Positions 21,327 through 61,207 of a stretch of DNA of 64,000 nucleotides are shown piece by piece. The position numbers and the translations under genes are program-made. Location: the NCBI GenBank assembly GCA_016219325.1, contig JACRNH010000002.1, positions 3,862 to 67,861 of the forward strand, read 5' to 3'. Under the pieces are notes generated by a model that worked only from the letters and a program-made list of their open reading frames with translations, made no database searches and was not told where the DNA came from. Every line of letters begins with the position of its first letter. The stretch's first letter is position 1. The stretch comes from Candidatus Collierbacteria bacterium (GTDB lineage Bacteria > Patescibacteriota > Microgenomatia > UBA1400 > JACPES01).

Positions 21327-23426
<2,100 letters not shown>

Positions 23427-25654: not shown

Positions 25655-25810
25655 CTGTTATCCGATTTCTGTTTTCAGTTATCGGATTCAGGTTTATCGG
25701 TTTTCAGTCTGTCGGTCTCGAAACCGGAAAACCGAAAACTGGCAAACTTGCAACCGAAAACCGATAACCGAGAACTGATAACTAATTCTATCAGTTTATC
25801 GCTAATCTGC
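25655..25810. repeat. about 130-bp TTATCGGTTTTCGG palindromic element, intergenic copy
   Basis: cagttatcggattcaggtttatcggttttcag ... aaccgaaaaccgataaccgagaactgataact; sits between divergent mreB and the mreCD-mrdA side. Confidence 0.8.
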
Positions 25811-30652: not shown

Positions 30653-30786
30653 ACCGTTATCAGTTTTCGGTTATCAGTTATCAGTTTCAGGTTGGTCGGT
30701 TTTCGGTTAATCAGTTTCCGAAACCGGCAAACCGAAGACCGATGGACTATAAACCGAAAACAGAAAACTGAGAACTGATAACCGGC
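30653..30786. repeat. about 130-bp TTATCGGTTTTCGG palindromic element, intergenic dprA-topA
   Basis: ccgttatcagttttcggttatcagttatcag ... aaccgaaaacagaaaactgagaactgataaccgg. Confidence 0.8.
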
Positions 30787-30806: not shown

Positions 30807-32948
30807 ATGAAACTTGTTCTTGTTGAGTCTCCGACCAAAGCCCGGACACTGACAAAATTTTTGGGCGGGGATTACAGAGTTGAAGCCACGATGGGGCATT
30901 TGCGGGATCTGCCCAAGAACAGGATGGGATTTTCGGTTAAGTCGGAAAACGGTAAAACTAAATTTTTGCCGGACTACGAAGTGGCGGCGGAAAAAAAATC
31001 CAAAGTTGCCGATTTGGTGGCGGCATCCCGCGGAATGGATAGAATTATTCTGGCGACAGATCCTGATCGGGAAGGAGAGGCGATTGCCTGGCATGTAGCC
31101 GCGCTTTTGCGCGGAACTCAAAATTCAAAATTCAAAATTCAAAATTTTCAAAGGGTTGTTTTTCATCAAATCACCAAAGACGCGATTCTAGACGCGATGA
31201 AGCATCCGCGGGAATTGGATATGAATTTGGTTGACGCTCAACAGGCCAGAAGGATTTTGGACAGGATGGTTGGATATCAGCTATCGCCGTTATTGTGGAG
31301 AAAAATCCGCCGCGGATTATCGGCCGGCCGTGTCCAAAGCGTTGCCGTCAGGATGATTGTTGAACGGGAGCGGGAAATTGAATCTTTTATGCCGGTTGAG
31401 TATTGGGAGGTATTCGTAAAAGTACAAGAAAGTACAAAAATGTACAAAAATGTACAAGAAGGTGAATTTGATGTCAAGCTGATTGAAATTGATGGGAATA
31501 AAGCTGATTTATCGAAGAAAAATCAGGTAGATCCGGTCGTTGAGGATTTGAAAAAAGCGCGATATTCAGTTGAGAAAGTTGATAGAACAGAAGTCAGGAA
31601 GCGGCCATTCCCGCCGTTTACTACCAGTACTTTGCAGCAGGCGGCATCCAGAACTTTCCGCTGGAGCGGTAAAAAAACTATGAATATCGCCCAAAGGTTA
31701 TATGAACATGGTTTTATTACTTATCACCGAACCGATTCAACTAATTTAGCCAAAGAAGCGGTGGAAAATGTCCGCCAATTAATTTTATCTAAATATGGGA
31801 AGGATTATTTGCCGTCTGAAGCAAGATTTTTTAAAACCAAAAACGCGCTGGCGCAGGAGGCTCATGAAGCAATTAGGCCAACCAATCCTATAGATTTTTA
31901 TAATCCGGGAAAACTGGAACAGGAAGTCGGATTAATCGCCAAAGACGCTTTCCGGCTTTATCAATTAATTTGGAAAAAATTTGTCTCCTGTCAGATGGCA
32001 GACCAGATTTATGACCAAACTACGATTAAGGTTTTGGCTCAGGGTATTAAAAAATACGGATTAAAAGTTGTCGGGATGGTGGAAAAGTTTGAGGGATGGA
32101 AAATACTTTATCAGTCGTCAGTTCTCGGTTCTCGGTTGTCAGATAAAAGTCAATCAGTTATCGGTTTATCAGTTTCAGGAGTCGAAAAACTGAAAACCGG
32201 TAAACCAGAAACTGAAAACGGAGAACAGAAAACTGATCAACCGTTACCCGAAGTTCAAGTTGGCGATCAGCTTCAATGCATCAAAGTGGATCCTCAGCAG
32301 AATTTTACCCAACCCCCCGGAAGATTCACTGAGGCGATGTTGATTAAGTTGTTGGAGGAAAAGGGGATTGGCCGGCCGTCAACTTACGCTCCGATTGTAA
32401 GTACGATCCAGGATAGGGGATACGTGGAAAAAATGGAAGGCAGATTTCATCCAATGCCGGTGGGGATAGTGGTAAATGATTTTTTGGTGGAATATTTTTC
32501 TTCAATTGTGGATTATGATTTTACTAAGAATTTGGAAGAGGATTTTGACAAAATAGCGGAAAATAAAAAAGGCTGGAATGATGTGTTAGGGGAATTTTAT
32601 TCTCCGTTTGTTGAAAGGCTGAAGAAAGTTGAAATTGGGGCGGAGAGGAAAAGAATTCCGGCTGAAGAAACAGGGGAAAGCTGTCCCAAATGCGGGGAAG
32701 GCCGGCAAGTTATTCGATCGGGGAAATTCGGTAAATTCCTATCCTGTTCGCTGTTTCCTAAATGCGATTGGAAAAATAAATATGTGGAAAAATCAGGCGT
32801 TAAATGCCCGTTATGCCGTGACGGCGACGTGGTAGTTAAGAAAACAAAAAAGGGTCGTCACTTTTTCGGTTGTTCAAATTATCCGAATTGTAAATTCGCC
32901 AGCTGGAGAAAGCCGGGGGGGGAACTAGCAAAAAAACAGGAAATATGA
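30807..32948 (+). CDS. topA: DNA topoisomerase I
   Basis: MKLVLVESPTKARTL, a TOPRIM domain, the catalytic region, and C-terminal Cys4 zinc ribbons (CPKCGEG, CPLCRDG). Two in-frame repeat insertions. Confidence 0.85.
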   Translation: MKLVLVESPTKARTLTKFLGGDYRVEATMGHLRDLPKNRMGFSVKSENGKTKFLPDYEVAAEKKSKVADLVAASRGMDRIILATDPDREGEAIAWHVAALLRGTQNSKFKIQNFQRVVFHQITKDAILDAMKHPRELDMNLVDAQQARRILDRMVGYQLSPLLWRKIRRGLSAGRVQSVAVRMIVEREREIESFMPVEYWEVFVKVQESTKMYKNVQEGEFDVKLIEIDGNKADLSKKNQVDPVVEDLKKARYSVEKVDRTEVRKRPFPPFTTSTLQQAASRTFRWSGKKTMNIAQRLYEHGFITYHRTDSTNLAKEAVENVRQLILSKYGKDYLPSEARFFKTKNALAQEAHEAIRPTNPIDFYNPGKLEQEVGLIAKDAFRLYQLIWKKFVSCQMADQIYDQTTIKVLAQGIKKYGLKVVGMVEKFEGWKILYQSSVLGSRLSDKSQSVIGLSVSGVEKLKTGKPETENGEQKTDQPLPEVQVGDQLQCIKVDPQQNFTQPPGRFTEAMLIKLLEEKGIGRPSTYAPIVSTIQDRGYVEKMEGRFHPMPVGIVVNDFLVEYFSSIVDYDFTKNLEEDFDKIAENKKGWNDVLGEFYSPFVERLKKVEIGAERKRIPAEETGESCPKCGEGRQVIRSGKFGKFLSCSLFPKCDWKNKYVEKSGVKCPLCRDGDVVVKKTKKGRHFFGCSNYPNCKFASWRKPGGELAKKQEI
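31128..31150. repeat. (AAATTCA)n heptamer repeat inside topA
   Basis: aaaattcaaaattcaaaattcaaaatt, encoding NSKFKIQNF; preceded by the hairpin ccgcgcttttgcgcgg. Confidence 0.8.
32110..32243. repeat. about 130-bp TTATCGGTTTTCGG palindromic element inserted in frame in topA
   Basis: Encodes SSVLGSRLSDKSQSVIGLSVSGVEKLKTGKPETENGEQKTDQ without interrupting the ORF. Confidence 0.8.
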
Positions 32949-32966: not shown

Positions 32967-33677
32967 ATGGCAGATAAAATTGTCCGACTATTTGGAGGGC
33001 ATAGAAATAAAGTATATAAGACTAACGGATTTGTAAAAGTGGTTTGGAAAGATGGTTTTAAGCGGCGGAAACAAATTCGCGAGGGAGTTTTGCTGGAGAA
33101 TTTTGTCGCCAGTCATACCGATATTAAAGCCCGGATTCTGGTTGATAAATCTAAACCAACTGAAGAAGAAAATGGAGAATTGGTGACATATTTTCATTAT
33201 GTTGACGGCGAAATCCGTTACCCGTGGAATTTGGAAGAAATTGCCTCAGTTGCAAGACTATTGGGAAAATTCCATCAAGCCATCAATTCTTCCTTACTTT
33301 TTACTCCTTACTCCATACTCCACTTAGATTTTGCCCGCGGTAACGTCCTTTTTCAATCAGGCTCTTCCAGCGCCATTGGCGTTATTGACTTTGAAACTAC
33401 TGCCAAAGGACCGGTGGAGCAAGAATTAGGAAGGAGCTTGAGTTTCATCCTCGTAGATACCCCCTGTGAAGTTTACGAAACTTCACAAGAGAAGTTTCGT
33501 AAACTGGAGCAACGGACAATGTCCTTCTTGACAAATTACGGTCTTCCCTATAGAAAAGAGAATGTCATAAAATGGACGAAGAAGTTATTAGCTGGAGACG
33601 ATTTCGGCAGTTTGAATAGTTTTCGTGATTCTGCGATACAATTTGCGATACAATTTATTAACTCATTAACCTATTAA
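32967..33677 (+). CDS. kinase-like phosphotransferase (APH/choline-kinase fold)
   Basis: HLDFARGNVLF and IDFETT resemble the catalytic-loop and DFG-like motifs. Contains a GAAGTTTACGAAACTTC palindrome and a 12-mer direct repeat in frame. Confidence 0.35.
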   Translation: MADKIVRLFGGHRNKVYKTNGFVKVVWKDGFKRRKQIREGVLLENFVASHTDIKARILVDKSKPTEEENGELVTYFHYVDGEIRYPWNLEEIASVARLLGKFHQAINSSLLFTPYSILHLDFARGNVLFQSGSSSAIGVIDFETTAKGPVEQELGRSLSFILVDTPCEVYETSQEKFRKLEQRTMSFLTNYGLPYRKENVIKWTKKLLAGDDFGSLNSFRDSAIQFAIQFINSLTY

Positions 33678-34825: not shown

Positions 34826-34905
34826 AAAATAATGAGCAGAAAATAATGAGTAATGTTATTTGATTTGATTCATTACTCTTTACTTCTTACTCATTACTCA
34901 TTATG
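34826..34905. repeat. AATGAGCAGAAAATAATGAGTAATG inverted-repeat element; its 3' arm supplies the dCMP deaminase start
   Basis: aaaataatgagcagaaaataatgagtaatg ... cattactctttacttcttactcattactcattATG. Confidence 0.75.
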
Positions 34906-35418
34906 AACGCTGATATTGAATTAATGCGCCGGGCAGCCAAAATTGCCGGCAACACCAAATGCTGGATTGGGATTGGATGCGTGATTGCCAAGGGCGGGAA
35001 AATTCTGGTCGAGACGTGGAATGAAACTTTGGAGGGGGAGGAGTATTGCCAGAAGTTCCGCAATCATAGAATCAATAAAGGCCCGGCCTTGCAGCACAAA
35101 GCCGGGCCTTATCATAACAACGAAGGGTGTATTCGACATGAGCTTAAACTATCCGGTGGCAAAGACGCGGAAAAAGTTTGCAGTATTCACGCCGAAGTCA
35201 ACGCCATCGCCAAGGCCGCTCGGCAGGGGATTGTAGTTTCCGGCGCCACCATTTACGTCACCAGCTTTCCGTGTTTAATATGCATGAGGGCCATAGTGGC
35301 CGCCGGAATTAAGAAAGTTGTGTATATGAATGATTTTTATAAACCGCACAACATAGAATTATTTGATAAGAACGGAGTTGAATTTAAACAAATTCCTGAA
35401 AATATAGTTTGGAAATAG
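34903..35418 (+). CDS. dCMP deaminase (CMP/dCMP deaminase zinc-binding family)
   Basis: CSIHAEVNAI and PCLICMRAI (the HAE and PCxxC motifs). A GGCC palindrome is inserted in frame. Confidence 0.65.
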   Translation: MNADIELMRRAAKIAGNTKCWIGIGCVIAKGGKILVETWNETLEGEEYCQKFRNHRINKGPALQHKAGPYHNNEGCIRHELKLSGGKDAEKVCSIHAEVNAIAKAARQGIVVSGATIYVTSFPCLICMRAIVAAGIKKVVYMNDFYKPHNIELFDKNGVEFKQIPENIVWK

Positions 35419-35497
35419 ATTTTGTTATCTTGTTATCTTGTTATCTTGTTACTAATCAAGATAACAATCTAGCAAGATAGCAAGCTAGCAATTATTC
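35419..35497. repeat. (TTGTTATC)3 tandem plus inverted partner (AAGATAACAA / AAGATAGCAAG)
   Basis: ttgttatcttgttatcttgttatcttgttactaatcaagataacaatctagcaagatagcaagctagcaa. Confidence 0.7.
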
Positions 35498-37045
35498 TTG
35501 AACTGGCCTAAATACTTTAAAGACCGTTTAATTCTTGGTAATCCTGATTCTGATTCCGCAATTGCAACGTTGTGGACGCCGATGAACGTGGTGGCAAAAA
35601 TGACGGATGTTTATAAGGTTTCTATCATTGGTCAACTCTATACAAAAAGGGGAATTAATTATTTGTTGAGAAATGTTTTATCTAACCCAAAGATAAAAAG
35701 AATTTTATTGGTTGGAGCAGATTTAATGGGATCTGGGGAAGAGCTTGCGCAATTAGCAGAGGACCGTCTTCTTCAGACTGATTGGTTGGATGAGAATATC
35801 TCAGTAGGCGGAATTAAAAAATTCTTTAAAAACGTTGAAATCGTCAATAAAATCGGTCCGGTTTCTCCGGAAAAAATTACTGATTTTATAAGTAAAAGTA
35901 AAAACTGTAAGCAATGGTCTAAGCCTCTGGAATTTCCGGAACAGGAAGCAGGTAGCAGCGGGGGATTGCCAAGCGAAGAGTCGGGATTTACCGTAAGGGG
36001 AGAGAAGGTCTGGCAGTCTTGGATTAGGTTGTTGCGTGAAATAATGAGATTTGGGCGTCCCAGCCCGATGATTCATCATTACGGAGCCGAGAGAACTACG
36101 GAAATATTTAATTTGACGGCAGTCATTTATGGTGAAAACCCTGAAAGCCCGGAGTTGCCAAAATGGCTTCCGTATTCCAAAGATGATATCAAAAAATATG
36201 CAGCCGGATTTTTATCTGCCTCACGCGGCGATGAGGCCTACACTTATGGCGAGCGAATTAAGGCGTATCCGTTAGAACTTTATAAAAAGGAATGGTTCAA
36301 TGATTCGAATCATTTAACTGACTCTGACAGCAAAAAGTTTGTCCGATCGCTAAAAAAAACGATAACGGATAATGGGCTAAATCAACAGGAATTGCTTGCT
36401 AAAAAACTCAAAAGTTTTCCGGAGAATAAGGGGGCTGTTGCAATTTTATGGGAACCGATTATTGACAATTTTGGGTTGAGGGAAATTTGGCGGACGCCGT
36501 GTTTGGTTTTAGTCCAAGCCGTAATCCGCGATAAGAAGTTATTTTTAACCGCTTATTTCAGAAGCAATGATATGTACGGAGGATGGTTTTTAAATGCTTT
36601 CGGATTATTGGCTTTTCAAAAAGAGTTGGCTGGAATGATAGGAAAGAATATTAAATTGGGGCCATTGACAACTATCTCCCACTCTGCCCATATTTACGAG
36701 TCGAGTTGGCAGTTAGCGGAAAAACTTGTTCATGACCATTGGATAGATGTTTCCTGCGAATGGGATCCGCGGGGCAATCTGCATTTTGAAACTGATGGAA
36801 AATTTATCGTGGTTAAACATTTGTCTCCGGACGGAATTTTCCTGGACGAATATCGCCAAAATGGTATGGAAGAAAAGGCGGCTAAAAGATTATGTTTTGC
36901 CTTGGAGTCAGCCGGATTATTTTCAACTGTCGGAAACGCCATGTATGCTGCCCGCCAAATTGAACGCGCCGAAACCGCGATAAAATTAGAATTACCTTTT
37001 ATTTCCGACGAACCTTTGAATTTCAAAAATAAGTATGCCAAATAA
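35498..37045 (+). CDS. thymidylate synthase (ThyA)-like protein with about 170-aa N-terminal extension
   Basis: TPCLVLVQAVIRDKKLFLTAYFRSNDMYGGWFLNAFGLLAFQKELAGMIGKNIKLGPLTTISHSAHIYESS parallels ThyA PCH...YQRSxD...HIYxNH. Confidence 0.45.
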   Translation: MNWPKYFKDRLILGNPDSDSAIATLWTPMNVVAKMTDVYKVSIIGQLYTKRGINYLLRNVLSNPKIKRILLVGADLMGSGEELAQLAEDRLLQTDWLDENISVGGIKKFFKNVEIVNKIGPVSPEKITDFISKSKNCKQWSKPLEFPEQEAGSSGGLPSEESGFTVRGEKVWQSWIRLLREIMRFGRPSPMIHHYGAERTTEIFNLTAVIYGENPESPELPKWLPYSKDDIKKYAAGFLSASRGDEAYTYGERIKAYPLELYKKEWFNDSNHLTDSDSKKFVRSLKKTITDNGLNQQELLAKKLKSFPENKGAVAILWEPIIDNFGLREIWRTPCLVLVQAVIRDKKLFLTAYFRSNDMYGGWFLNAFGLLAFQKELAGMIGKNIKLGPLTTISHSAHIYESSWQLAEKLVHDHWIDVSCEWDPRGNLHFETDGKFIVVKHLSPDGIFLDEYRQNGMEEKAAKRLCFALESAGLFSTVGNAMYAARQIERAETAIKLELPFISDEPLNFKNKYAK

Positions 37046-41619: not shown

Positions 41620-42483
41620 ATGTTTATTATCGATGGTAAAAAATTAGCAGCGGAAAGAGAACAGCTTCTAAAAATTGAAGTCCAAAAATTAACCAAAAAG
41701 ATTGGCAGAAGACCAAGATTAGTGGCAGTCGAATTGTCCGATGACGAGGGAGGTAGGTTATATTTGAAATTAAAAAAGGCGGCAGCGGAGAGGGTGGGGA
41801 TAGAATTTGATGTTGTAAAAAGGCCTGGCCTTGCATGGCAAGGCCAGGCCTTATCAGACACTGACGGTATCTTCATTCAGCATCCTCGGGGTTACAATAA
41901 GCAAAAATGGCAGGAGCTGGTTGATCAAATTCCACCGGAAAAAGATGTTGATTGTTTGACCAGTGAAAATCTCCGATTGATAAAAGAAGGAAATCCAAGG
42001 TTTTTGCCGGCGACAGTGAAAGCCGTTTTATATTCTCTGGAACACGTTTTTCGTCTGGAAAGGCCTGGCCTTGCTTGGCAAGGCCAGGCCTTATCTGATG
42101 CTCTACGCGGGAAGAAAATCGTTATTCTGGGGCGAAGCCCCATTCTTGGATTACCGCTATTTTGGTGGTTGAAAAGCCTTGGCGTTAATGTGACGCTCTT
42201 TCATTCTCAATCGACGATTAGCGATTTACGATTAGCGGTTAGCGAGGCTGATATTTTAATTTCTTCCGTCGGTAAGCCCGGATTAGTCACCGGCAATATG
42301 GTTAAGAAAGGGGCAATTGTAATTGATTGCGGTTCGCCTTTGGGAGACGTAGTTTTCAGTGAAGTAGCTCCCAAAACCTCAGCTATAACCCCTGTTCCCG
42401 GCGGCGTTGGGCCGCTGACAGTGGTCAGTCTAATGGAAAATGTGGTACAATCCATAAATAACGCAGGCCGGGAAAGCTCCTGA
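41620..42483 (+). CDS. folD: bifunctional methylene-THF dehydrogenase/cyclohydrolase
   Basis: FolD layout with a GxGxxVG-like Rossmann motif. Two identical in-frame GGCC palindrome insertions (PGLAWQGQALSD, twice). Confidence 0.8.
   Translation: MFIIDGKKLAAEREQLLKIEVQKLTKKIGRRPRLVAVELSDDEGGRLYLKLKKAAAERVGIEFDVVKRPGLAWQGQALSDTDGIFIQHPRGYNKQKWQELVDQIPPEKDVDCLTSENLRLIKEGNPRFLPATVKAVLYSLEHVFRLERPGLAWQGQALSDALRGKKIVILGRSPILGLPLFWWLKSLGVNVTLFHSQSTISDLRLAVSEADILISSVGKPGLVTGNMVKKGAIVIDCGSPLGDVVFSEVAPKTSAITPVPGGVGPLTVVSLMENVVQSINNAGRESS
41821..41853. repeat. GGCC palindrome AGGCCTGGCCTTGCATGGCAAGGCCAGGCCTTA (copy 1 in folD)
   Basis: Perfect hairpin-forming sequence inside the coding frame. Confidence 0.85.
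42061..42093. repeat. GGCC palindrome (copy 2 in folD)
   Basis: aggcctggccttgcttggcaaggccaggcctta. Confidence 0.85.
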
Positions 42484-42524
42484 TTTATTGAGTTCCCGAC
42501 TGTCCCGCGAAGCGGGATCCTGCT

Positions 42525-43301
42525 TTGCAGGAAGGATTAAGGAGCTATATGCCAAAAAAAGACGATAAGATTTCGATTGATGTTTCTTTGGAAGAATTAA
42601 TGGAGGCAGGGTGTCATTTTGGGCATCAGGCCCGCCGTTGGCATCCAAAAATGGCTCCATATATCTGGGGTCAAAAGGATGGCGTTCACATTTTTGATTT
42701 GGATAAAACCCGCCAGGCTATTTTAGAAGCCGTAGAGATGGTCAGGAAGCTTGCGTCGGAGGGAAAATCAATTATTTTCGTCGGGACCAAGAAACAGGCT
42801 TATCAGATTATTACTGAAGAAGCGGTTAGAGCCGGAATGCCGTTTGTGGCCAAACGCTGGTTGGGGGGAACTTTAACTAATTGGAAACAATTGAAATTAA
42901 GCATCAATAAATTGATTGATCTGAAGATGAAACGTGATGCTAAAGAGTTGGATAAATATACTAAGAAAGAAAGAATTTTAATTGATAAAGAAATTGATAA
43001 ATTGGAGAAATTTGTCGGCGGGCTGCAAAAATTAACAGGTTTGCCGGATGCCATTTTCGTTGTTGACATAAAAAGGGAAGAGTCGGCCGTCAGGGAAGCT
43101 TTCATATTAAATATTCCGGTGATTGCCATAGTCGATTCCAATTGCAATCCGGAAAAAATAACTAAAATAATTCCGGGTAATGACGATGCCATCAGAACTA
43201 TCAGATTAATTACTTCTAAAATTGCCGATGCAGTGCTGGAGGGAAAAATAAAAAACAATGAACAGAAAGCAAAGAGCAATGAAACAAAACTACAGTCATA
43301 A
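42525..43301 (+). CDS. rpsB: 30S ribosomal protein S2
   Basis: GCHFGHQARRWHPKMAPYIWG is the S2 signature. The C-terminal tail NNEQKAKSNETKLQS is encoded by a repeat. Confidence 0.85.
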   Translation: MQEGLRSYMPKKDDKISIDVSLEELMEAGCHFGHQARRWHPKMAPYIWGQKDGVHIFDLDKTRQAILEAVEMVRKLASEGKSIIFVGTKKQAYQIITEEAVRAGMPFVAKRWLGGTLTNWKQLKLSINKLIDLKMKRDAKELDKYTKKERILIDKEIDKLEKFVGGLQKLTGLPDAIFVVDIKREESAVREAFILNIPVIAIVDSNCNPEKITKIIPGNDDAIRTIRLITSKIADAVLEGKIKNNEQKAKSNETKLQS

Positions 43302-44459: not shown

Positions 44460-45491
44460 TCAAAGAGATCTGGTTATTTTCCTTAAATTCTCAATTCCCC
44501 AATTTATCCAATATTTCCAGTTTAACGGCATATCATGTGCGGGAAGATAAGCAAATTGCTTTCCGCCGAAACCGCGTTTGAACAATGACGGACCTGCAAA
44601 ACGATGTGTCAGGAGCTTTTCGTCGGTCACGTCCCCCCACAAATTGTAAGTCTTGCAGCCTCTCTTTTTTGCCTCCTGAATAATTTCCCATTGAATAGCG
44701 TACGCGGCTGGAATTTTTCTGGCTTCATCAGTTGAGGCAGCGTAGTGGTAGATAGCCTCGCCACGATAAAAAATAACAAAGGCGATGGAAGCTGGCTTAG
44801 AAAGGCCCAGCCTTGCTATTGCAGCAGGGCCGGGCCTTAATTGACTCACGAAAAATAGTTCGACAGAATCAGTCATATTAAATTCTCTAAACTGTTCCAG
44901 TAAATATTTCTTTGAAAATGGCACAAACCCTTCCCGTTTCGCAGTTTCCGCCTGTAGTTTAATAAAATCATCAATCAACTTTTCGTCCTGTGATTTCTCA
45001 ACTTTTATTCCCATCTTCAAAGATTTCTTAATTTCATATCTGGTGCTTTTTCTCATTTCAGATAACAACTGTTCGTCCGTTTTTGTCAAATCAATAACTC
45101 TGGTTAATTGGGCGTGGAGATGCATTGGAGCCGGCCGAAAATCCATCATCTGTAAAGTATCTGATACTTTACAAGTATCAGATACTTGGGGGCGGATTCT
45201 TATAAAAACGCATCTTTCTTTTACCGCGATTTCTTTCATTAGAGTTACTGCCTGTTTCCATTGTGGAACAGAAAAATAGTTTTTTAATAATGGTCCGCCG
45301 GGAACTGTTAAATGCCGGCCGCGTTTAGCCGGTTCGACAATAGCTTGAAACATTCCGTTGTTAAATTTAACCCTATAAACGGGCAGTCCTAATTTTTGAT
45401 GAAATTCTCCCCATGCCCAGGATTGCAGGAAGTTGCCATCGGGGTGATTACCTAATGATTTTCCCCATTTCGATTTAGTTATATCTGTCAT
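44460..45491 (-). CDS. FemAB-family peptidyltransferase (peptidoglycan interpeptide bridge formation)
   Basis: N-terminal FLQSWAWGEFHQ and the FemAB/GNAT-like layout. Contains a GGCC palindrome and a GTAAAGTATCTGATACTTTAC palindrome in frame. Confidence 0.55.
   Translation of the reverse strand: MTDITKSKWGKSLGNHPDGNFLQSWAWGEFHQKLGLPVYRVKFNNGMFQAIVEPAKRGRHLTVPGGPLLKNYFSVPQWKQAVTLMKEIAVKERCVFIRIRPQVSDTCKVSDTLQMMDFRPAPMHLHAQLTRVIDLTKTDEQLLSEMRKSTRYEIKKSLKMGIKVEKSQDEKLIDDFIKLQAETAKREGFVPFSKKYLLEQFREFNMTDSVELFFVSQLRPGPAAIARLGLSKPASIAFVIFYRGEAIYHYAASTDEARKIPAAYAIQWEIIQEAKKRGCKTYNLWGDVTDEKLLTHRFAGPSLFKRGFGGKQFAYLPAHDMPLNWKYWINWGIENLRKITRSL
44802..44840. repeat. GGCC palindrome inside the femAB-like gene
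   Basis: aaaggcccagccttgctattgcagcagggccgggcctta. Confidence 0.8.
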
Positions 45492-45503: not shown

Positions 45504-45542
45504 AAGGCCCGGCCTTGCTGCAGCCGCAAGGCCGGGCCTTTA
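45504..45542. repeat. GGCC palindrome, intergenic
   Basis: aaggcccggccttgctgcagccgcaaggccgggccttta. Confidence 0.85.
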
Positions 45543-46862
45543 TTGATTAATCAGCTTTGCCAAGCATTCTGCTTTTTCATTTGAAATACTAATATGCGTC
45601 GGTAGATTGAAAATATGTTCCGAGAGATTTTCGGTGTTAGGGCAAGAGCCTGGTTGATATTTAACCTGAGAGTCGCTTACCCGCTCAGGGGAAACAGGTG
45701 CGTCGTACCAATGATCCATCAGATAAAAACCATGGCGGGTCAATTTTTTTTCTAACTCGTCCCTGTTTCCCACCCAAATCGGGTAGCGTAAATTAGAGCC
45801 GTTTTTTATGTCATCAATTATCACCAATTTAAACTTCCGGTTAAGAATCCGGCCGTAAGTTAAGGCAATATTCCGGCGGTGAACTATTATTTTGTCTAAT
45901 CTTACTAATTGATTGAATGTCAAAGCAGCCAGAGCGTTAGGCAGCGCGGTAGGCGTCGTCGGAGCGTCAACAGGAGAGTTCATTAGCCCAAAGAATTTTG
46001 CCAGCCAATGAATTACTTTTCCCACTCTAAACTTGCCAATCCCAATTTGATAAGTTGATCTTATTAACCAAGTACAGATAGGATAGAGGAGATGTTTTCC
46101 GATTTCTATTAAAATTAAATGATTCGAATCATTTAATTTTTCGGGCAATGGCAAAATTTTGCTGGCGATCAATGCTCCGCCGGAAACTCCATCAATCACT
46201 TTATCTTGGGAGAAAGAAAGAATGATAGCGTTAGCAGAAGCTATTAGTTGTTGGTTATTAGTTGTTGGTTTTGGCGTTGGGATAAAGAAATGAGCTAAGT
46301 CCTGAATTATAAAAATCTTGTGGTTCCGGCACCACTTAACTATTTCGTCATTCTCCCGGTTAATATATCCAAGAGTGTGTTGTAGAATTATGGCCTTAGT
46401 TTTAGAAGTGGCGGATTTTTTAATTTGCTCAAATGACGGATTGAGATTTTTGGTGTCAACATCAACATAAATAGGTGTTGCCCCCAAATCTAAAATCGGT
46501 TGCACCACTGCCACACAGGTAAAAGCTTGAACTATAACTTCGTCATCCTGTCCGATTCCGAGCTTCCGTAAGGCCTCATAAATTGCGTGCCGGCCTTTTA
46601 AAAATAGTTCCACTGTCATTCCGGGCTTGACCCGGAATCTATTTAAATAGATTCCCACCTTCGCGGGAATGACACTTTTCAGTGTCTCAAGCTCCTTCCC
46701 CTGTTTCCATTTCCACGGTTGAAATAACAATTTCAGAGCTAAAATTCTGTCTCCGGAAGTATAGTTTGATCCTAAGGAATTGGTGATGATCATATTGATA
46801 TCATAGCTAATTGATACAATTGGCGCTATGAAGAAGCTGAAAATGAACTTGGAGTTATCCAA
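45540..46862 (-). CDS. DegT/DnrJ/EryC1/StrS-family PLP aminotransferase
   Basis: VQAFTCVAVVQPILDLGATPIYVDVD and the lysine region SFSQDKVIDGVSGGAL. Has an in-frame direct-repeat insertion (TTATTAGTTGTTGG twice). Confidence 0.55.
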   Translation of the reverse strand: MDNSKFIFSFFIAPIVSISYDINMIITNSLGSNYTSGDRILALKLLFQPWKWKQGKELETLKSVIPAKVGIYLNRFRVKPGMTVELFLKGRHAIYEALRKLGIGQDDEVIVQAFTCVAVVQPILDLGATPIYVDVDTKNLNPSFEQIKKSATSKTKAIILQHTLGYINRENDEIVKWCRNHKIFIIQDLAHFFIPTPKPTTNNQQLIASANAIILSFSQDKVIDGVSGGALIASKILPLPEKLNDSNHLILIEIGKHLLYPICTWLIRSTYQIGIGKFRVGKVIHWLAKFFGLMNSPVDAPTTPTALPNALAALTFNQLVRLDKIIVHRRNIALTYGRILNRKFKLVIIDDIKNGSNLRYPIWVGNRDELEKKLTRHGFYLMDHWYDAPVSPERVSDSQVKYQPGSCPNTENLSEHIFNLPTHISISNEKAECLAKLINQ

Positions 46863-47646: not shown

Positions 47647-47667
47647 AAAGGCCGGGCCTTATCAGAC
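47646..47667. repeat. GGCC half-palindrome with conserved CTTATCAGAC tail
   Basis: aaaaaggccgggccttatcagac between convergent genes; a possible bidirectional terminator. Confidence 0.6.
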
Positions 47668-49025
47668 TAAATAAATGGTTTTCGTTTTTTATCCCAGAAT
47701 TTTCCGCGGCGGCAAAGATTTTCAACATCAGATTTGTTTTTCAATAGAGCTTCAACCATAATTTCTAGAAAGATAGTATTTTGCGAACCCTTAACTAAAA
47801 TGATTTCATTCCCTGAAAGATTTTTTGTTAAATAATTTGCCGCCTCTCCGGCGGCAGAAAACCATTCGACCGGCAGTTTTGATTGTTGAATTGCCGGCAG
47901 AAAGTATTGTTTCATCAATGGACCGACAAGGATAATTTTGTCAGCTGATTTTATCGCAGTTTCCGCCACTTTTTTATGTTCGATTTCAGCCTGTGATCCG
48001 AGCTCTCTCATGTCCCCTAAAACAGCAATTTTAATTTTGCCCCCCCCAATATTTTTTAGCATCTCAAGACTTCCATTCATAGTTTTTCCCGAGGCGTTAT
48101 ATGAAGAATCAATAATTGTGGTGTTTTTAATTCCTTGAAAAATCCGGCCTCGGCCGGGGGGAAGATTAAAATTAGCGGTTAAAGCCTCTGAAATTTTTTT
48201 GACCGGCAAATCTAAAATCATTCCGACTGTTGCTGCCACTGCCATGGTTTCACTGTAATAATTGGGAAGAGCAAGATTTAGCAGATTTATGAAGTATGAT
48301 TTATGATTTATGAATAAAGAAATAGATGTTCCATCTAGGCTTGGAAGTATAGATTTAATAACAACGTCAGCGTTCTTCTTTCTTCCGAATGTCACAATGC
48401 GGGCTTCATCTACCGGTTTTAATGAAATAATTTCCGGTTGATCGGCATTCAAAATGGCGTATTGAAGATCCGGGTTTTGTGTCACCAGTTTTCCTTTCTC
48501 TTTGGCTATCGTTGCAACAGAGCCAAATTGTTGCGTATGAACAGGTAGGGCATTTAGAATTACCCCGATATCCGGATGTAGAATTGTCAATAAGTATTCC
48601 ATATTTTTTGGCAGGGTCGGTTCATCGATTCCCATTTCAACCAGATAGCAGTCAAATGCTGAATGCTGAATACTGAATACTGAATGCAATGCTTTAAGCG
48701 GAGCCAGAAGACAAATTTTTAGCCAGTCAAAAAATGAATAGTCGATAAAGTGCAAGCCGAGAATATCAGCCGGAATTCCGGATTCGGAATTGGCCTTTTC
48801 GGCGACTTTAAGATTTTTGAATTTTAGTCTTAACACCGGAGCGATAGCGTCTACGGCACTGGACTTTCCGGCAGAGCCGGTGACTCCGACTATGAATGGG
48901 CGGTTAATTTTTAATACTTGCCGCGCCCAAAACCTTAACCACCATAAAACCGGCCAGCGGAGAATGTTTTTCATCGAATTTATTATAGCTTGTTTAAAGG
49001 CTTGGTTTGGCGTAACCACTTCCAA
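47667..49025 (-). CDS. murF: Mur ligase (MurF-like UDP-MurNAc-pentapeptide synthetase)
   Basis: GVTGSAGKSS P-loop and NSESGIPADILGL. Heptamer repeat insertion LKALHSVFSIQHSAFD. Confidence 0.55.
   Translation of the reverse strand: MEVVTPNQAFKQAIINSMKNILRWPVLWWLRFWARQVLKINRPFIVGVTGSAGKSSAVDAIAPVLRLKFKNLKVAEKANSESGIPADILGLHFIDYSFFDWLKICLLAPLKALHSVFSIQHSAFDCYLVEMGIDEPTLPKNMEYLLTILHPDIGVILNALPVHTQQFGSVATIAKEKGKLVTQNPDLQYAILNADQPEIISLKPVDEARIVTFGRKKNADVVIKSILPSLDGTSISLFINHKSYFINLLNLALPNYYSETMAVAATVGMILDLPVKKISEALTANFNLPPGRGRIFQGIKNTTIIDSSYNASGKTMNGSLEMLKNIGGGKIKIAVLGDMRELGSQAEIEHKKVAETAIKSADKIILVGPLMKQYFLPAIQQSKLPVEWFSAAGEAANYLTKNLSGNEIILVKGSQNTIFLEIMVEALLKNKSDVENLCRRGKFWDKKRKPFI
48655..48688. 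repeat. (TGAATRC)n heptamer repeat inside murF
   Basis: aaatgctgaatgctgaatactgaatactgaatgc. Confidence 0.8.
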
Positions 49026-49746: not shown

Positions 49747-50856
49747 ATGCTAACTGTTTTGATATTTTTTATTCTCCTCTCGGTTCTGGTTCTGGTTCAT
49801 GAACTAGGGCATTTTATCGCAGCCAAAAAATTGGGTGTGGTGGCGGAAGAGTTCGGATTGGGATTACCGCCGAAAATAAGGAGGTTATTTACCTGGCAGG
49901 GGACTGAATTTACTCTTAATTGGTTGCCGTTGGGAGGGTTTGTGAAGATGAGGGGGGAGAATCGCGAAACAGAAAACAATGAGCAAAAAACAATGAGCAA
50001 TGAGGGTGACGGTTACTTTTATGCGCAGAAGCCGTGGAAGCGGGCGGTGATTTTGGTGGCCGGAGTGTTTATGAATTTGGTTTTGGGAGTGGCTGCATTT
50101 ACCGTGGTTTATACGGTTATGGGAATTCCGGAAGAAAGAGATGTAGTAGTAATTGACGGTGTGGCGCCGGGAAGTCCGGCGGAACGAGCACGATTAGAGC
50201 CGAATGATATCGTGCTCGAACTCAAATCTCAAAACTCAAATCTCAAAACTATTAAGACAGAACAATTTATTGAGTTGATCAATCAGAATAGGGGAGAAGA
50301 AGTTAAACTCGTTGTCAAGCGCGGAAGCGAGGATAAGGAGATTTCTATAACTCCCAGGGTTGAGTCAGAGACTCCGGCAGGGGAAGGGGCTTTGGGGGTG
50401 GCAATATCCAATATTCAGTTTATTCATTATCCTTGGTGGCAGATGCCGTTCCGGGCGTCCGTAACCGGGTTTAAGGAAGCTTTGGCGTGGGGAGGAAACA
50501 TCGTCGGAGGATTGGGGAAAATGCTGGTTGATTTAATAGCTCACGGCAAAGTCCCAAATGACGTTGCCGGTCCAGTTGGAATTGCTAGAATTACCGGAGA
50601 AGTTGCCAAAAGAGGCTGGATTCCGTTATTCCAGCTAGCCGGAATTTTATCAATCAATTTGGCGGTGGTGAATATTCTGCCGATTCCGGCTTTAGACGGC
50701 GGCCGGCTGTTATTTTTAGGCATAGAAAAACTGCGGGGCAAGCCGATGGATCCCAAAAAAGAGCGCTTAATCCACTTAGCCGGTTACGCGGTGCTGCTGG
50801 GCTTGATTGTGTTGATAACTTTTCGCGATATATCAATGGCGGTCTCCGGGAAATAA
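49747..50856 (+). CDS. rseP: RseP-like site-2 protease (M50 with PDZ)
   Basis: HELGHFIAAKKLGV (HExxH), a PDZ-like middle domain, and C-terminal ALDGGRLLF. Two in-frame repeat insertions. Confidence 0.75.
   Translation: MLTVLIFFILLSVLVLVHELGHFIAAKKLGVVAEEFGLGLPPKIRRLFTWQGTEFTLNWLPLGGFVKMRGENRETENNEQKTMSNEGDGYFYAQKPWKRAVILVAGVFMNLVLGVAAFTVVYTVMGIPEERDVVVIDGVAPGSPAERARLEPNDIVLELKSQNSNLKTIKTEQFIELINQNRGEEVKLVVKRGSEDKEISITPRVESETPAGEGALGVAISNIQFIHYPWWQMPFRASVTGFKEALAWGGNIVGGLGKMLVDLIAHGKVPNDVAGPVGIARITGEVAKRGWIPLFQLAGILSINLAVVNILPIPALDGGRLLFLGIEKLRGKPMDPKKERLIHLAGYAVLLGLIVLITFRDISMAVSGK
49966..50003. repeat. AACAATGAGCAAAAAACAATGAGCAATGAG element inside rseP
   Basis: Encodes ENNEQKTMSNEG. Confidence 0.75.
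50221..50250. repeat. (CTCAAAW)n heptamer repeat inside rseP
   Basis: ctcaaatctcaaaactcaaatctcaaaact. Confidence 0.8.
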
Positions 50857-51927: not shown

Positions 51928-52103
51928 GCCGTTATAAGAGTACGTAAAATCTCCGGGATTGGCGGATATATATCCGGCGTTGCCCGCCAAGGTTAATTTT
52001 TCCACCCTGTCTTTCGGAGGTGAATACAATCTTTTTTTATTTGTTTTTCTGGATTTAATTTTCATAGTTTATGATAACAATAATAATATACTTTTGACAT
52101 ATA

Positions 52104-52547
52104 GTGTCAACTTTAAATTTAATGATACCAAAACAGACGGAAAATTATTTCAGGTTAAAAATATTCAACAAATCATCGGGCGGAATTTTCAAGATGGTTA
52201 TCAGGGGAAACAGTATGTGGCCGTTTTTAAGGCACGGACAGGAGATTACGGTTAGAAAGTTGAAGGAAAACGAGTCGTGCCGGATTGGAGATATCGTGGT
52301 TATAAAAATTAGGAATTTCTTTTTGATCCATAGAGTTCTGTTAAGAAAGAAAACAAAAGATGGTGGGGGCTATGAATATTTTACGAAAGGTGATAGGAGG
52401 TTGGTTGGCGATGGGTGGATAAAGAATAAGAATATTGTCGGTCGAATACCGACAGGGAAAACACAAAGAGTATTTGGTTATTTAACAGCTTGTTACTCTT
52501 TTGCCCTGCTTCTCATTGGGGAAATAATTAACAGAAGAAACGCCTGA
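52104..52547 (+). CDS. S24/S26-type serine peptidase (LexA/signal-peptidase fold)
   Basis: VIRGNSMWPFLRHGQEITV resembles the GDSMeP Ser nucleophile motif, and GRIPTGK is a possible Lys. An alternative start is the ATG at 52194, downstream of a TTGACA-N17-ATTTAA candidate promoter. Confidence 0.4.
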   Translation: MSTLNLMIPKQTENYFRLKIFNKSSGGIFKMVIRGNSMWPFLRHGQEITVRKLKENESCRIGDIVVIKIRNFFLIHRVLLRKKTKDGGGYEYFTKGDRRLVGDGWIKNKNIVGRIPTGKTQRVFGYLTACYSFALLLIGEIINRRNA

Positions 52548-53365
52548 ATCTTTTGCAGAATAGATTGATTGGCAATCAAAAGCCTAAGGAAAATATTGTA
52601 GCGGAATCTAAGATGCATATTGCGGATTGGCGATTTTACGGTGTGGGAATTGATAAACAACGGAACCAATGAGCTAAGGATATTTTTGGGTTTTAATTTT
52701 AATAAGACGGAATTAGGCACATTTGCTTTTGCGGTTTGCTTAGATAGAAGCAGAGGATAATAAGCGAATTCTTTTAAATTCCATGAAGCAAGTCTTGAAA
52801 TAACGATTTCCCAATTAATATCTAGATTTCTTGTAATTAATGAAATATCAAAAGACTGATGCTGATTTCGGCAACTATGATGGAAGAAAAAGTTAAGGCA
52901 TTGATGAAGGAGCATGTCCTCATTTTCCAAAATCAGAAATTTATTTCTTTGAAAGATAATTGATTGCGCCCGCCTGATAAATTCAGAAGTGATTCGTTTT
53001 ACTAACTTTGGAGGCAGAACATTAAAAATATACTTTGTGGGAAAAAATATCTGATTATGAATATCGCAAACAATCGTTGCTCTTGGCAATTTCTTTACAA
53101 AGTTTATTTGTGGCCTTAATGATGGTTGTTGATAGAAACGGTGTTTTGAATAGCCTAAGGATTTAAGAATAAGATTGACTTTAGAAAACGAGCTATTAGG
53201 AATTAGGATATCGATATCAACAGGATGTATTTTGGGCCATCGGCCGGTTAAGAAATAATATTGGGTAATTCCTTTTAGATATACCGCCTGAACCCCTTTG
53301 CGGTTTAGGGCGCGCTGGAGTTTAAGCAATTCATCGACGTAGATAAGTAATTTTTCCTCAATCAT
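52493..53365 (-). CDS. PF14907-like uncharacterised nucleotidyltransferase
   Basis: AVYLKGITQYYFLTGRWPKIHPVDIDILIP matches LKG...Y...R...DIDlLv. Confidence 0.4.
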   Translation of the reverse strand: MIEEKLLIYVDELLKLQRALNRKGVQAVYLKGITQYYFLTGRWPKIHPVDIDILIPNSSFSKVNLILKSLGYSKHRFYQQPSLRPQINFVKKLPRATIVCDIHNQIFFPTKYIFNVLPPKLVKRITSEFIRRAQSIIFQRNKFLILENEDMLLHQCLNFFFHHSCRNQHQSFDISLITRNLDINWEIVISRLASWNLKEFAYYPLLLSKQTAKANVPNSVLLKLKPKNILSSLVPLFINSHTVKSPIRNMHLRFRYNIFLRLLIANQSILQKIQAFLLLIISPMRSRAKE

Positions 53366-53404
53366 TTTGTCGGGAGAAAATGATTAATGTGAAAGTCAAA
53401 TAAT

Positions 53405-53641
53405 TTAACGAACAAAGCCCTGCCGTATTTCTTGTTTAATATTACCTTTTGATAAACAATTTAGAATCAATTCCCAATCTCCGCAAAATTTATATTTAGG
53501 ATTAAATCGTAATCCTTGGACCGCAGATTTTCGGAAAACCATATGTGAAAGTTGTCCAAGAAACGGAGCGGAGCGGGGAAGACGCTTTTGGTTAAATAAG
53601 CAGGAAGCAATTTTAAGTAAATCTTTAAATATATTGACCAA
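53405..53641 (-). pseudogene. family 2 glycosyltransferase, C-terminal fragment
   Basis: FRKSAVQGLRFNP is a GT2 C-terminal motif. It is separated from the N-terminal fragment by a frameshifting 73-bp tandem duplication. Confidence 0.5.
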
Positions 53642-53642
53642 T

Positions 53643-53788
53643 TTAAGTCGGAATATTCTTTGTGGCGGCCAATCTTTCGGATAAATCTTTTGGGACAGGC
53701 AAACGGTCGCTATCTTTAAGTCGGAATATTCTTTGTGGCGGCCAATCTTTCGGATAAATCTTTTGGGACAGGCAAACGGTCGCTATCG
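53643..53788. repeat. perfect 73-bp tandem duplication
   Basis: ttaagtcggaatattctttgtggcggccaatctttcggataaatcttttgggacaggcaaacggtcgctatc occurs twice, back to back. Confidence 0.9.
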
Positions 53789-54116
53789 TGGATTGATCGT
53801 TTTGCAAATATCGCAGAGAAACTTTAAGAAAATCTTTATTCCAAATGTCATCCGAGTCAAGAAATGCAATATAATCGCCTTTGGCATATTGGAACCCTGA
53901 ATTTCTGGCAGCCATAGAACCTTTTGATTTATTGATTCTAACAATTTTGACATGACCGCTAAAAGTTTTTAGTTGAGAAGAAAGCGGGGGTTGCGATCCG
54001 TCATCAACAATGATTATTTCCGTGGGAATATTTTGAGATAATACCGATCCGATCGTTTTCCGTAATAAGGCAACTCTGTTTTTAGCCGGAATAATGACTG
54101 AAGTTGCAAGAGACAT
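53643..54116 (-). pseudogene. family 2 glycosyltransferase, N-terminal fragment
   Basis: VIIPAKNRVALLRKTIGSVLSQN...IIIVDDGS...DSDD is the GT-A DxD layout. It terminates inside the duplicated segment. Confidence 0.5.
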
Positions 54117-54220
54117 GATATAGTGATCAGCTTAATTTGACTATATTATATGATTGTCTCTCAGGGCATAGAATTTTTGCTGATTATGACTAAAAGAAAT
54201 AAGTATAACTGCTTAGAACA

Positions 54221-55201
54221 ATGAGCTATTATCCTACAATTGCAATTGTTGGATGTGGGGCTATTGTTGAAACATTTTATTTGCCATCGTTTCATAAATT
54301 GGGATATGCAAAGAATAAAATTATTCTTGTGGATACAAATAACGACAGGTTACATAAATTGGGGGATAAGTTTGAGTTAAAGAAGATGACCATTGACTAT
54401 AGAAAAATATTGAATAAAGTTGACGGTGTCATTATTACCACACCAAGCTACTTACATTTTGAGCAAACAATTCAATTTCTAAAGAACGGTGTTTATGTTT
54501 TAAGCGAAAAACCGCTTGTTACAAGTTTTTCTCAATATAAAAAGATCTTAAATTTAGAAGAGAAAAGTGGATATAAAATATTGATTAATCATACAAAGAG
54601 ATTATTTCCAGTTTCTATTGAAATAAAAAATAAAATAAATTCTGGAGTAATTGGGAAACCATTGGGCTTTGACTACTCCGAAGGAGGACAGTTTACTTGG
54701 CCGACAGCGTCAGGATTTTATTTTCAATGGGATAAGGGTGTGTTAATTGATCGGGGATCTCACGCAGTTGATTTGGTTTGTTGGTGGTTGGGAAAACCAA
54801 AATCAATTAGTTATATAGATGATTCTTTTGGCGGAAGCGAAGCCGTAGCATTGTTGAATTTTAAGATTAATTCATGTAAAGGTAGAATAAAGTTTAATTT
54901 GTTCAATAAGCTATCTAATAAATATTATATTAAAGGCGCCAAGGGCGAAATTAGCGGTGATATTTACGATTTTACATCGTTTCTATTGACCAACTATTCT
55001 GATAAATCTACTGTTAAGATTACGCTTCCAACAAAGCAAAAGACCTACTTCGATTTTGCGGATATATTGATCAGAAATTTTATAGATATGATTTCTAATC
55101 ATGCTGATCCATTAATATCAGTTAGCGATATTAAAGATTCCGTTGAGACTATTGACTATTGTTATAGACACAGACAAAGATTTAACATGCCATGGTTTTA
55201 A
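54221..55201 (+). CDS. Gfo/Idh/MocA-family oxidoreductase
   Basis: IAIVGCGAIVETFYLPSF Rossmann N-terminus and EKP motif. Confidence 0.55.
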   Translation: MSYYPTIAIVGCGAIVETFYLPSFHKLGYAKNKIILVDTNNDRLHKLGDKFELKKMTIDYRKILNKVDGVIITTPSYLHFEQTIQFLKNGVYVLSEKPLVTSFSQYKKILNLEEKSGYKILINHTKRLFPVSIEIKNKINSGVIGKPLGFDYSEGGQFTWPTASGFYFQWDKGVLIDRGSHAVDLVCWWLGKPKSISYIDDSFGGSEAVALLNFKINSCKGRIKFNLFNKLSNKYYIKGAKGEISGDIYDFTSFLLTNYSDKSTVKITLPTKQKTYFDFADILIRNFIDMISNHADPLISVSDIKDSVETIDYCYRHRQRFNMPWF

Positions 55202-60024: not shown

Positions 60025-60055
60025 AAAGTAAATTTTAACCTATTGACTTTTTATT

Positions 60056-61177: not shown

Positions 61178-61207
61178 AACAAAGGTTATCCGAGATGGTG
61201 AATTTTT

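Follow-up and report, generated by a model that had tools for sequence, protein, structure and literature searches.

Repetitive extragenic palindromic sequences (REPs) are, by definition, extragenic; they are usually imperfect, carry GTAG or CGTC heads and are mobilised by REP-associated tyrosine transposases (RAYTs), and the spacers of REPINs, the hairpin-forming doublets of such units, are longer than the loops described below. Uptake signal sequences and DNA uptake sequences (USS/DUS) arise in place by point mutation; each species has a single motif, which is depleted in its coding DNA. REP super-families are treated in PMC3733652, and the terminator-like SPRITE repeats are named in PMC10969869. 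Rickettsia palindromic elements (RPEs; Ogata et al. 2000, 2002, as given in PMC10969869) are palindromic repeats that lie in frame in many unrelated housekeeping genes of Rickettsia. They add peptide segments compatible with the protein fold, are conserved at orthologous sites across species and have no known transposase; they measure about 100-150 bp, are confined to Rickettsia, and are diverged and imperfect (PMC10969869). In Nematomorpha, perfect inverted repeats of up to 284 bp occur in mitochondrial coding genes and are transcribed and translated; these repeats are gene-specific and lie over conserved protein regions, and do not form a dispersed family (PMC6649704). Here we describe a family of much shorter palindromes that lie in frame in folD and other genes of a 64,000-nt stretch (hereafter the window) of contig JACRNH010000002.1, which belongs to a metagenome-assembled genome (MAG) of Candidatus Collierbacteria (locus tags HZB78_). 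The family is apparently undescribed: the open-access literature yielded no account of it in the candidate phyla radiation (CPR), Patescibacteria or Microgenomates.

The folD gene contains two copies of a 33-nt pattern, AGGCCTGGCCTTGC(A/T)TGGCAAGGCCAGGCCTTA, on the + strand and 240 nt apart, and no third exact occurrence is present in the window. The twin insertions reported in the initial annotation are therefore real, since shuffling of the window gives an expectation of 0.00 matches as against the two seen. In an inverted-repeat scan both copies show full (100%) complementarity between the 15-nt arms, which enclose a 3-nt loop. They translate to KRPGLAWQGQALSD and ERPGLAWQGQALSD, i.e. (K/E)RPGLAWQGQALSD, and their predicted RNA folds have energies of -32.6 kcal/mol (z -5.2) for copy 1 and -36.2 kcal/mol (z -6.1) for copy 2. 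Related copies had been noted in the genes for dCMP deaminase and a FemAB-like protein, in one spacer and as two half-sites, and all of these were recovered:

41620-42483, + strand: folD, bifunctional methylene-tetrahydrofolate dehydrogenase/cyclohydrolase, identified from its open reading frame (ORF), its translation and a match to FolD in the Protein Data Bank (PDB; E=1e-34)
41821-41853, + strand: palindrome copy 1, AAGGCCTGGCCTTGC-ATG-GCAAGGCCAGGCCTT, FolD residues 68-80 (RPGLAWQGQALSD)
42061-42093, + strand: palindrome copy 2, AAGGCCTGGCCTTGC-TTG-GCAAGGCCAGGCCTT, FolD residues 148-160
35078-35110, in the dCMP deaminase gene (34903-35418, + strand): copy with one mismatch, peptide KGPALQHKAGPY
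44802-44838, in the femAB-like gene (44460-45491, - strand): copy with two mismatches and a 7-nt loop, peptide LRPGPAAIARLGLS
45504-45540: intergenic doublet, flanked by the DegT-like stop (45540) and the femAB-like start (45491)
47648-47660: singlet core AAGGCCGGGCCTT, tail ATCAGAC, in the gap where the transglutaminase-like and Mur ligase genes converge
23703-23715: singlet core AAGGCCCGGCCTT with a TTTGTGGC tail, CCACAAAAGGCCNGGCCTTTTGTGG subfamily

The unit common to these copies is the 13-nt AAGGCCNGGCCTT, which is a dyad by itself; a doublet consists of two such cores joined via TGC, the loop and GCA. Four of the five doublets in the window are intragenic. Perfect self-complementarity, which had been ascribed to all copies, holds for three of the five and fails in dCMP deaminase and femAB, with their one and two mismatches. 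The description of GC-rich hairpins in an AT-rich genome likewise needs tempering, because the window has a GC content of ~40% and is thus AT-rich only moderately. A tail said to be shared by the intergenic copies is exact (CTTATCAGAC) only in folD copy 1 and the 47648 half-site; it is replaced by CTTATCTGAT in folD copy 2 and by CTTATCATAA in dCMP deaminase, and is missing at 45504 and 23703. The subfamily of the 23703-23715 singlet recurs in three further loci (L070, L082 and L157; L numbers denote the loci compared with the window). GGCCAGGCC-like 9-mers number 33 in the window, where 7.0 +/- 3.1 are expected, and the core has zero stop codons across all six frames. Occurrences of GGCCNGGCC at 38327 and 43980 were considered as family members and set aside as unrelated, given that they have neither the AAGG/CCTT frame nor a partner arm. 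A terminator scan flagged the intergenic 45504-45540 copy on both strands and, on the antisense strand alone, the copy in dCMP deaminase; those in folD and femAB were unflagged and are read through as ORF, and the in-gene copies have no U-tract. At gathering thresholds, Rfam matched a tRNA-Trp and nothing else in the window, so that the palindromes match no known RNA family.

The family extends well beyond this locus. Its consensus is AAGGCCNGGCCTTGC, a loop of 0-9 nt, and GCAAGGCCNGGCCTT, which together form perfect palindromes of 33-38 nt. When this strict pattern was scanned in species-representative genomes, metagenome contigs and viral contigs, it was found in at least 120 metagenome stretches, mostly from groundwater, and the family is abundant in groundwater CPR contigs. 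Among the matches listed, 114 of 130 doublets (88%) lie in long ORFs, defined as an open frame with at least 40 codons on either side of the doublet, compared with 72% of 3900 random windows. The hosts are unrelated housekeeping genes, and among the matches listed they encode a carbamoyltransferase, glycosyltransferases, Wzy-like and PMT-like membrane proteins, UDP-GlcNAc epimerase, GatB, LeuRS and PheT; TsaD is a further host. The three reading frames are used unevenly (84/62/33), the rarest being the Cys/Trp frame, KA(W/R)PC, and it is chiefly this bias that suggests, indirectly, translation of the segments. Preservation of the frame had been proposed as a property of the element itself; the biased frame use, together with the fact that 33-nt and 34-nt palindromes are both common, makes it look instead like the result of selection.

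Copies inside ORFs occur in species-representative genomes of Collierbacteria (three), Daviesbacteria (three) and Saccharibacteria (in tsaD), and one each in MAGs labelled Jorgensenbacteria, Saganbacteria and Gammaproteobacteria (the last, L047, inside a 339-aa ORF), labels that may be due to mis-binning. The phenomenon reaches beyond Microgenomates, because a Saccharibacteria tsaD carries palindromes: this gene, at 4903-6090 of MAG L054, has two of them in frame, one of the GGCC type (SPRPGLAAARPGLD) and one of the GGTCCGACC type (QGPTLENSLRSDLK). A weak tblastn match between the two (E=0.74) had suggested a RAYT-like arrangement, which was rejected, the locus being tsaD itself. Matches in Agrobacterium, in Streptomyces and in the Gammaproteobacteria-labelled L045 lie outside long ORFs and are best read as chance terminators. 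The specific pattern has 0 matches in viral contigs; a loose AAGGCCNGGCC..GGCCNGGCCTT pattern has 37 single matches there, all of them ordinary terminators of phages of 51-71% GC and unrelated to the family. The richest comparison is offered by L002, the syntenic contig of an 85%-identical relative, in which 19 kb hold seven GGCC-type palindromes, the close variants AAAGCC (folD site 1) and GGTCTGGTCC (femAB/DegT junction), and one AAGGACAGTCCT-type palindrome. The hosts in L002 include the APH-like gene, dCMP deaminase, thyA, folD (both sites) and femAB. Identical sequences were found in independent assemblies from Logan, ENA, JGI and NCBI.

The strongest sign of copying is the recurrence of the same sequence at unrelated places. 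The exact 32-nt core AGGCCCGGCCTTGCCGCGGCAAGGCCGGGCCT occurs at 10 or more sites with unrelated flanks, and several further cores are shared by 3-5 sites each among the matches listed. The two folD palindromes of the window are identical at 32 of 33 positions, counting the loops, but their two orthologues in L002 differ from each other at three stem pairs; the contrast suggests that homogenisation or re-copying took place recently in the lineage of the window. The proposal of a mobile element is thus borne out as regards a dispersed family, identical cores at unrelated sites, and orthologous sites that are filled in some genomes and empty in others (see below); a part that does not stand is the recency of the folD copies.

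A comparison of FolD with solved structures, suggested at the outset, locates both inserts. The translation is 100% identical to NCBI MBI5356086.1 and retains the catalytic and Rossmann motifs of FolDs of solved structure. Site 2 is a net gain of 15 residues relative to PDB FolDs and falls in the domain linker, after the final helix of the N-terminal domain and before the Rossmann fold begins with its first strand. Site 1 is not a plain insertion, since the element there occupies the place of a canonical helix of ~20 residues; even with the element, this region falls 9 residues short of its PDB relatives. The segments are missing from all PDB relatives and from outgroup FolD and dCMP deaminase proteins; in outgroup FolDs, site 1 is a normal helix and site 2 is without an insert. 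These alignments support the view that the copies are insertions relative to the outgroup proteins. Presence of the same segments in FolD orthologues from distant lineages had been named as the observation that would make them ancestral: close relatives do share the peptides, so that the segments are ancestral within the clade, but distant FolDs are without them and they are still insertions on that scale. In the AlphaFold2 model of FolD (mean pLDDT, the per-residue confidence score, 89.8), residues 71-80 average 61 and residues 141-160 average 74-79; the other low-confidence part comprises the last few C-terminal residues (final block 64). Both inserts are, as modelled, loop regions, and they form the lowest-pLDDT loops of an otherwise confident prediction.

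DNA alignments of five or six syntenic genomes gave the state of each site, and brought to light three further positions in the window:

35756-35778, + strand: thyA remnant, a probable decayed half-element GCAGAGGACCGTCTTCTTCAGAC; full palindromes occupy the orthologous position in L002 and L180
48519-48523, - strand: empty site in the Mur ligase gene (47667-49025), with palindromes here in L081/L089 and L180
33287-33321, + strand: hot spot in the APH-like gene, which in the window holds (TCCTTAC)n heptamer repeats

Both folD sites are filled in the 85%-identical orthologue, with compensated differences, and the idea that the folD copies had been freshly dropped in must be abandoned for this reason. 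In relatives down to ~50% identity the peptides at the FolD sites vary (RPGLA..QGQAL, RSDLA..QGRTL, RSDPA..GSDL, RTVL..KGLS and RSHLD..QGETL) and are translations of different palindromes. Judged from these alignments, the folD sites are old, clade-wide hypervariable hot spots. The dCMP deaminase site holds the same or other palindrome subfamilies in relatives and none in outgroups, and at the femAB-like site four genomes have four different subfamilies. Single orthologous positions can hold GGCC, GGTCCGACC, GGTCTCACC, GGACTGTCC or other subfamilies, or else tandem repeats of heptamers or octamers. At the thyA position, L002 has a full GGCC palindrome and L180 one of the AAGGTGTAACCTT type. 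The Mur ligase position has a GGCC palindrome in L081/L089 and a GGTCCGACC palindrome in L180, a net difference of ~30-33 nt from the window, which has none; at the APH-like hot spot there are GGCC palindromes in L002 and L141, another palindrome in L175 and short tandem repeats in L180.

Loss and exchange are visible at the same positions. A deletion scar is seen in L178, which has lost an internal 21 nt relative to L177. The site at 47648, a singlet in the window, is a full doublet with identical flanks in L180. In L179, folD site 2 is cleanly empty, and since the ATCTGATG tail is present at this empty site, the tail belongs to the gene and not to the element. Over ~1.4 kb, L175 and L177 differ solely in a patch of 150-200 nt around folD site 2, which contains different elements, and a second mosaic tract between these two lies in SHMT. 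Mosaic patches in near-identical strains indicate that element alleles pass between strains by homologous recombination. A separate observation concerns L179, in which a single 782-aa ORF (4396-6744) is called across the DegT-like and FemAB-like genes; the palindrome at their junction, AAAAAGGCCAGGCCTTTCTGAAAAGGCCTGGCCTTTTT, orthologous to 45504-45540, seems to be read through, and the arrangement may be a palindrome-mediated gene fusion.

The symmetry of the palindromes is maintained while their sequence changes. Across 48 distinct 33-nt copies the 15 core pairs are ~99% paired, and variable positions always change on both sides; the central N pair, for example, is U-A in 28 copies, C-G in 11 and A-U in 7. 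Complementarity reaches past the core, through TGC/GCA and the variable inner stems. Stem evolution was followed in 37 orthologous pairs with flanks 84% identical, in which 601 stem base-pair positions were compared. There were 37 compensated double changes and 19 uncompensated ones, and per-base divergence was ~8% in stems and 16% in flanks, figures that are rough, given partial redundancy among the pairs and a few changes on the border between stem and loop. Still, independent neutral change would yield very few compensated doubles. Loops of the same pairs differ at 47 of 93 positions (~50%). Among coding-strand mismatches, G·U was counted 44 times and C·A 53 times, or 5 and 9 times in a hand count within cores; these wobble counts are noisy, as the relaxed hairpin search also caught flanks and unrelated weak hairpins. 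With no excess of G·U over C·A, the constraint looks strand-symmetric and would appear to act at the level of DNA.

Other repeats are plentiful in the window and its relatives. Tandem repeats of period 7 are in excess, with ~38 of 97 rows in the output of Tandem Repeats Finder (TRF) as against 3 rows for period 6. Most of these arrays have 4-5 copies and span ~30-34 nt, and many lie in genes, e.g., topA, PBP2 and Mur ligase; in relatives, heptamer arrays occupy palindrome hot spots. Period-7 arrays located by TRF include:

8075-8106, 8144-8174, 20481-20511, 20736-20769, 22078-22111 and 28946-28977: period-7 arrays
31118-31146, 32186-32236, 33291-33321, 48284-48313, 48655-48687 and 50221-50247: period-7 arrays, among others

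A dispersed unit of ~130 nt, in which (CGGTTAT)n is followed by inverted (AAACCGA)n to form a long heptamer-built hairpin, is present at 22922-23054, 25657-25785 and 30656-30784, and in the rpsB/tsf spacer of L002 (11580-11715). AT-rich tandem-repeat hairpins, of the types TAATGAG/CATTACT and (TTGTTATC)3 facing CAAGATAAC, lie at 22661-22759, 34830-34896 and 35419-35483, the latter two in the spacers that flank dCMP deaminase.

Additional palindromes resemble the GGCC family in organization. An AT-rich analogue, AAGTATCNGATACTT, is nested in the same way, with singlets (TGTAAAGTATCWGATACTTTACA) and doublets at no fewer than 12 sites, among them 45155-45187 (femAB-like gene) and 21279-21301 in the window and sites in L042, L061, L063, L099, L112, L139 and L147; the copy at 45155-45187 stands in place of ~13 ancestral codons with no change in length. 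Another family, GTGAAGTTT(ACG/CGT)AAACTTCAC, is found at 33470-33505 (APH-like gene) and 12607-12654 in the window and in L061, L070, L152, L162 and L164, and its APH-like doublet is conserved in L002 (3060-3095). Loopless perfect palindromes built on AAATGATTCGAATCATTT occur at 36295-36318 (thyA) and 46111-46140 (DegT-like) and are conserved at L002 5865 and 14475; in L148 and L180 different palindromes take up the thyA site. A comparison of L104 (10811-10834) with L127 (3792-3796) reveals a 21-nt insertion that inverts the neighbouring sequence (CCTGCCTGCC / GGCAGGCAGG), a local templated inverted duplication. The folD-rpsB spacer (42484-42530) contains GC-rich paired segments (CCCGCGAAGCGGG; CCTGCTTTGCAGG) immediately upstream of rpsB, which have no Rfam match; this predicted pairing could be a leader structure. 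Farther along, an exact tandem duplication at 53642-53787 (73-nt unit, 2.0 copies, 100% match) crosses the junction of ORFs 53405-53641 and 53643-54116. From 52000 to 62000 the GC content falls from ~0.40-0.44 to 0.32-0.36 and there are no palindrome copies; this stretch may be foreign or otherwise compositionally distinct.

With modest confidence, we favour an explanation in which the element is a palindrome that propagates at the DNA level in the manner of REPINs and RPEs and is tolerated in protein loops, its symmetry being probably kept by hairpin-templated correction or gene conversion. Copies would arise by DNA-level copy-and-insert, possibly REPIN- or IS200-like, acting on single-stranded hairpins. 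Those that survive would be limited to in-frame, stop-free copies in tolerant surface loops or linkers, and would be translated into ~11-16 extra residues, while hairpin-templated correction (through intrastrand template switching), gene conversion among copies, or both, would uphold symmetry. Copies within genes would outlast intergenic ones, persisting frozen in place because most deletions shift the frame and out-of-frame deletions are lethal.

A number of observations weigh against this explanation. Comparison of copies, which had been expected to define any target-site duplication, gave none that is consistent; in particular no consistent duplication was seen at 10 identical-core sites or in filled/empty pairs. 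Nor is there a consistent target sequence in the flanks, where the signal is weak and symmetric (T-W-W-N-A-N-A-Y, with T(-6)/A(+6) in ~60% of copies). Pfam applied to 20 ORFs of the window region gave housekeeping genes and no transposase, a crude HUH...Y motif scan of 2269 ORFs (~1 Mb of loci) was negative, and TnpA queries from IS200 and IS608 gave no transposase in tblastn either, the last being a weak negative. The palindromes stay perfect and ORF-enriched, whereas selfish repeats normally decay and avoid genes, and the greater conservation of stems than of coding flanks would also suit a selected function. Finally, the presence of unrelated palindromes or heptamer arrays at the same hot spots hints at a process driven by the site and not by the element. 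A more radical version, which we put forward tentatively and consider unlikely on balance, is that CPR bacteria have a dedicated process for handling hairpins, which writes cassettes of ~30-36 nt, consisting of perfect palindromes of several subfamilies or heptamer arrays, into fixed hot spots of essential genes and keeps the palindromes perfect. If true, the cassettes would form a new class of element that resides in genes and maintains itself; its machinery would bear no relation to known transposases, and it would also be a source of loop diversity in a reduced proteome.

Three other explanations each fit part of the data and clash with at least one result. The hairpins might be functional mRNA structures selected in place, for RNase protection or processing, as pause sites at domain boundaries or as internal attenuators, an RNA-level role that had been raised as the alternative to mobility. 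Very stable predicted hairpins (-23 to -36 kcal/mol, z -3.9 to -6.1), compensated changes in stems that are better conserved than their flanks, the enrichment in ORFs, and the location of several copies in interdomain linkers (e.g., folD site 2 and the N/C linker of the carbamoyltransferase) would all be expected of such structures. What recurs at unrelated sites, however, is the primary sequence itself and not structure alone, and coding-strand G·U is no commoner than C·A; moreover, the corresponding positions in close relatives can be empty, scarred or filled by heptamer repeats that form no hairpin, there is no Rfam match, and in-gene copies have no U-tract. A role in RNA thus finds no specific support, and we consider it rather improbable. 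It is less probable still that no mobile element is involved and that fragile hot spots in tolerant loops generate palindromes and tandem repeats locally, via snap-back, template switch and slippage, in a hairpin-tolerant lineage. Such local genesis would account for the different palindromes, heptamer arrays or scars at the same sites, for the inverted copy of adjacent sequence inserted in L104, for the 25 or more period-7 arrays in the window that fall in the palindrome size class (~30-34 nt), and for the palindrome at 45155-45187 that substitutes for ancestral codons without altering the length; it cannot bring one 32-34-nt sequence to 10 or more unrelated sites across genes and genomes, or hold a family consensus across CPR phyla.

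We are yet more doubtful that the 13-nt dyad is a DNA signal for a dimeric protein, such as an uptake, nucleoid or partition site, spread by biased uptake and homologous recombination in the way of USS/DUS. Each arm is palindromic, with arm-level symmetry kept in the subfamilies GGTCNGACC, GGACNGTCC and GTATCNGATAC; singlets lie at convergent gene ends, dprA is present in the window, and short recombination patches move element alleles between strains, all of which agree with a signal of this kind. Against it stand the coexistence of several subfamilies side by side in one genome, the status of the copies as insertions and not motifs evolved in place, the complementarity that continues beyond the core, and the loss of arm symmetry in some subfamilies (GGTCTCACC). 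Ancestral coding sequence, a chance similarity or an artefact of assembly is scarcely credible as the origin of the segments: near-identical peptides are indeed found at both sites in close orthologues (85% identity), but shuffling gives 0 matches, outgroup FolD and dCMP deaminase and all PDB relatives are without the segments, and independent assemblies agree.

Protein-coding palindromes have so far been presented as a peculiarity of Rickettsia, and the version in CPR/Patescibacteria, a huge uncultured group with minimal genomes and a poorly known biology, is far shorter, more perfect and more gene-biased. The system unites enrichment in essential genes (FolD, TsaD, LeuRS, PheT and GatB), lasting perfect symmetry via compensated changes, and hot spots that alternate between subfamilies, tandem heptamers, scars and empty sites from strain to strain. 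Several questions become approachable in existing metagenomes: (i) how hairpin DNA is propagated and proof-read without a known transposase; (ii) to what extent core enzymes tolerate insertions; and (iii) whether the elements drive protein loop evolution or recombination in CPR populations. There is also a practical side, as the repeats affect gene calling, alignments, primer design and strain tracking in these lineages.

The propagating palindrome that we favour can be set against the known systems. As one whole inverted repeat with no consistent target-site duplication, it differs from miniature inverted-repeat transposable elements, and no autonomous insertion sequence with matching ends was seen in the examined loci. 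It differs from intrinsic terminators, which combine a hairpin with a U-tract at a gene end, in that the folD and femAB copies are not flagged as such. With the USS/DUS and SPRITE repeats it has in common short over-represented motifs in both orientations, inverted pairs that serve as terminators, many copies in genes and variants in related species; unlike USS/DUS, the CPR elements are insertions, comprise several coexisting subfamilies and are complementary over the full hairpin. The Nematomorpha repeats are similar as coding palindromes in which structure and protein function are preserved together, and different in that the CPR elements are short dispersed inserts in variable loops.

The closest parallels are with REPs/REPINs and RPEs. 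Like REPs and REPINs, the CPR elements have a short palindromic unit that forms singlets and inverted doublets, the latter making one hairpin, and they have a high copy number, lineage-specific families and no target duplication. They depart from REPs in being intragenic in 88% of cases among the matches listed and in having no GTAG or CGTC in their flanks, and no RAYT was found in the window region, in the crude scan of ~1 Mb or by tblastn with TnpA, searches that cover individual loci. Like RPEs, they are in-frame, stop-free insertions in unrelated genes with no known transposase, and they occupy tolerant regions, in this case low-pLDDT loops of FolD that are hypervariable in orthologues. 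Their length of 33-38 nt, perfect stems of 15-19 bp, Collierbacteria and other CPR hosts and absence of sequence similarity to RPEs place them outside the RPE family, and their ORF enrichment and turnover of subfamilies at fixed hot spots are further differences. By analogy, we suggest that the CPR elements would work like a miniature hybrid of RPE and REPIN.

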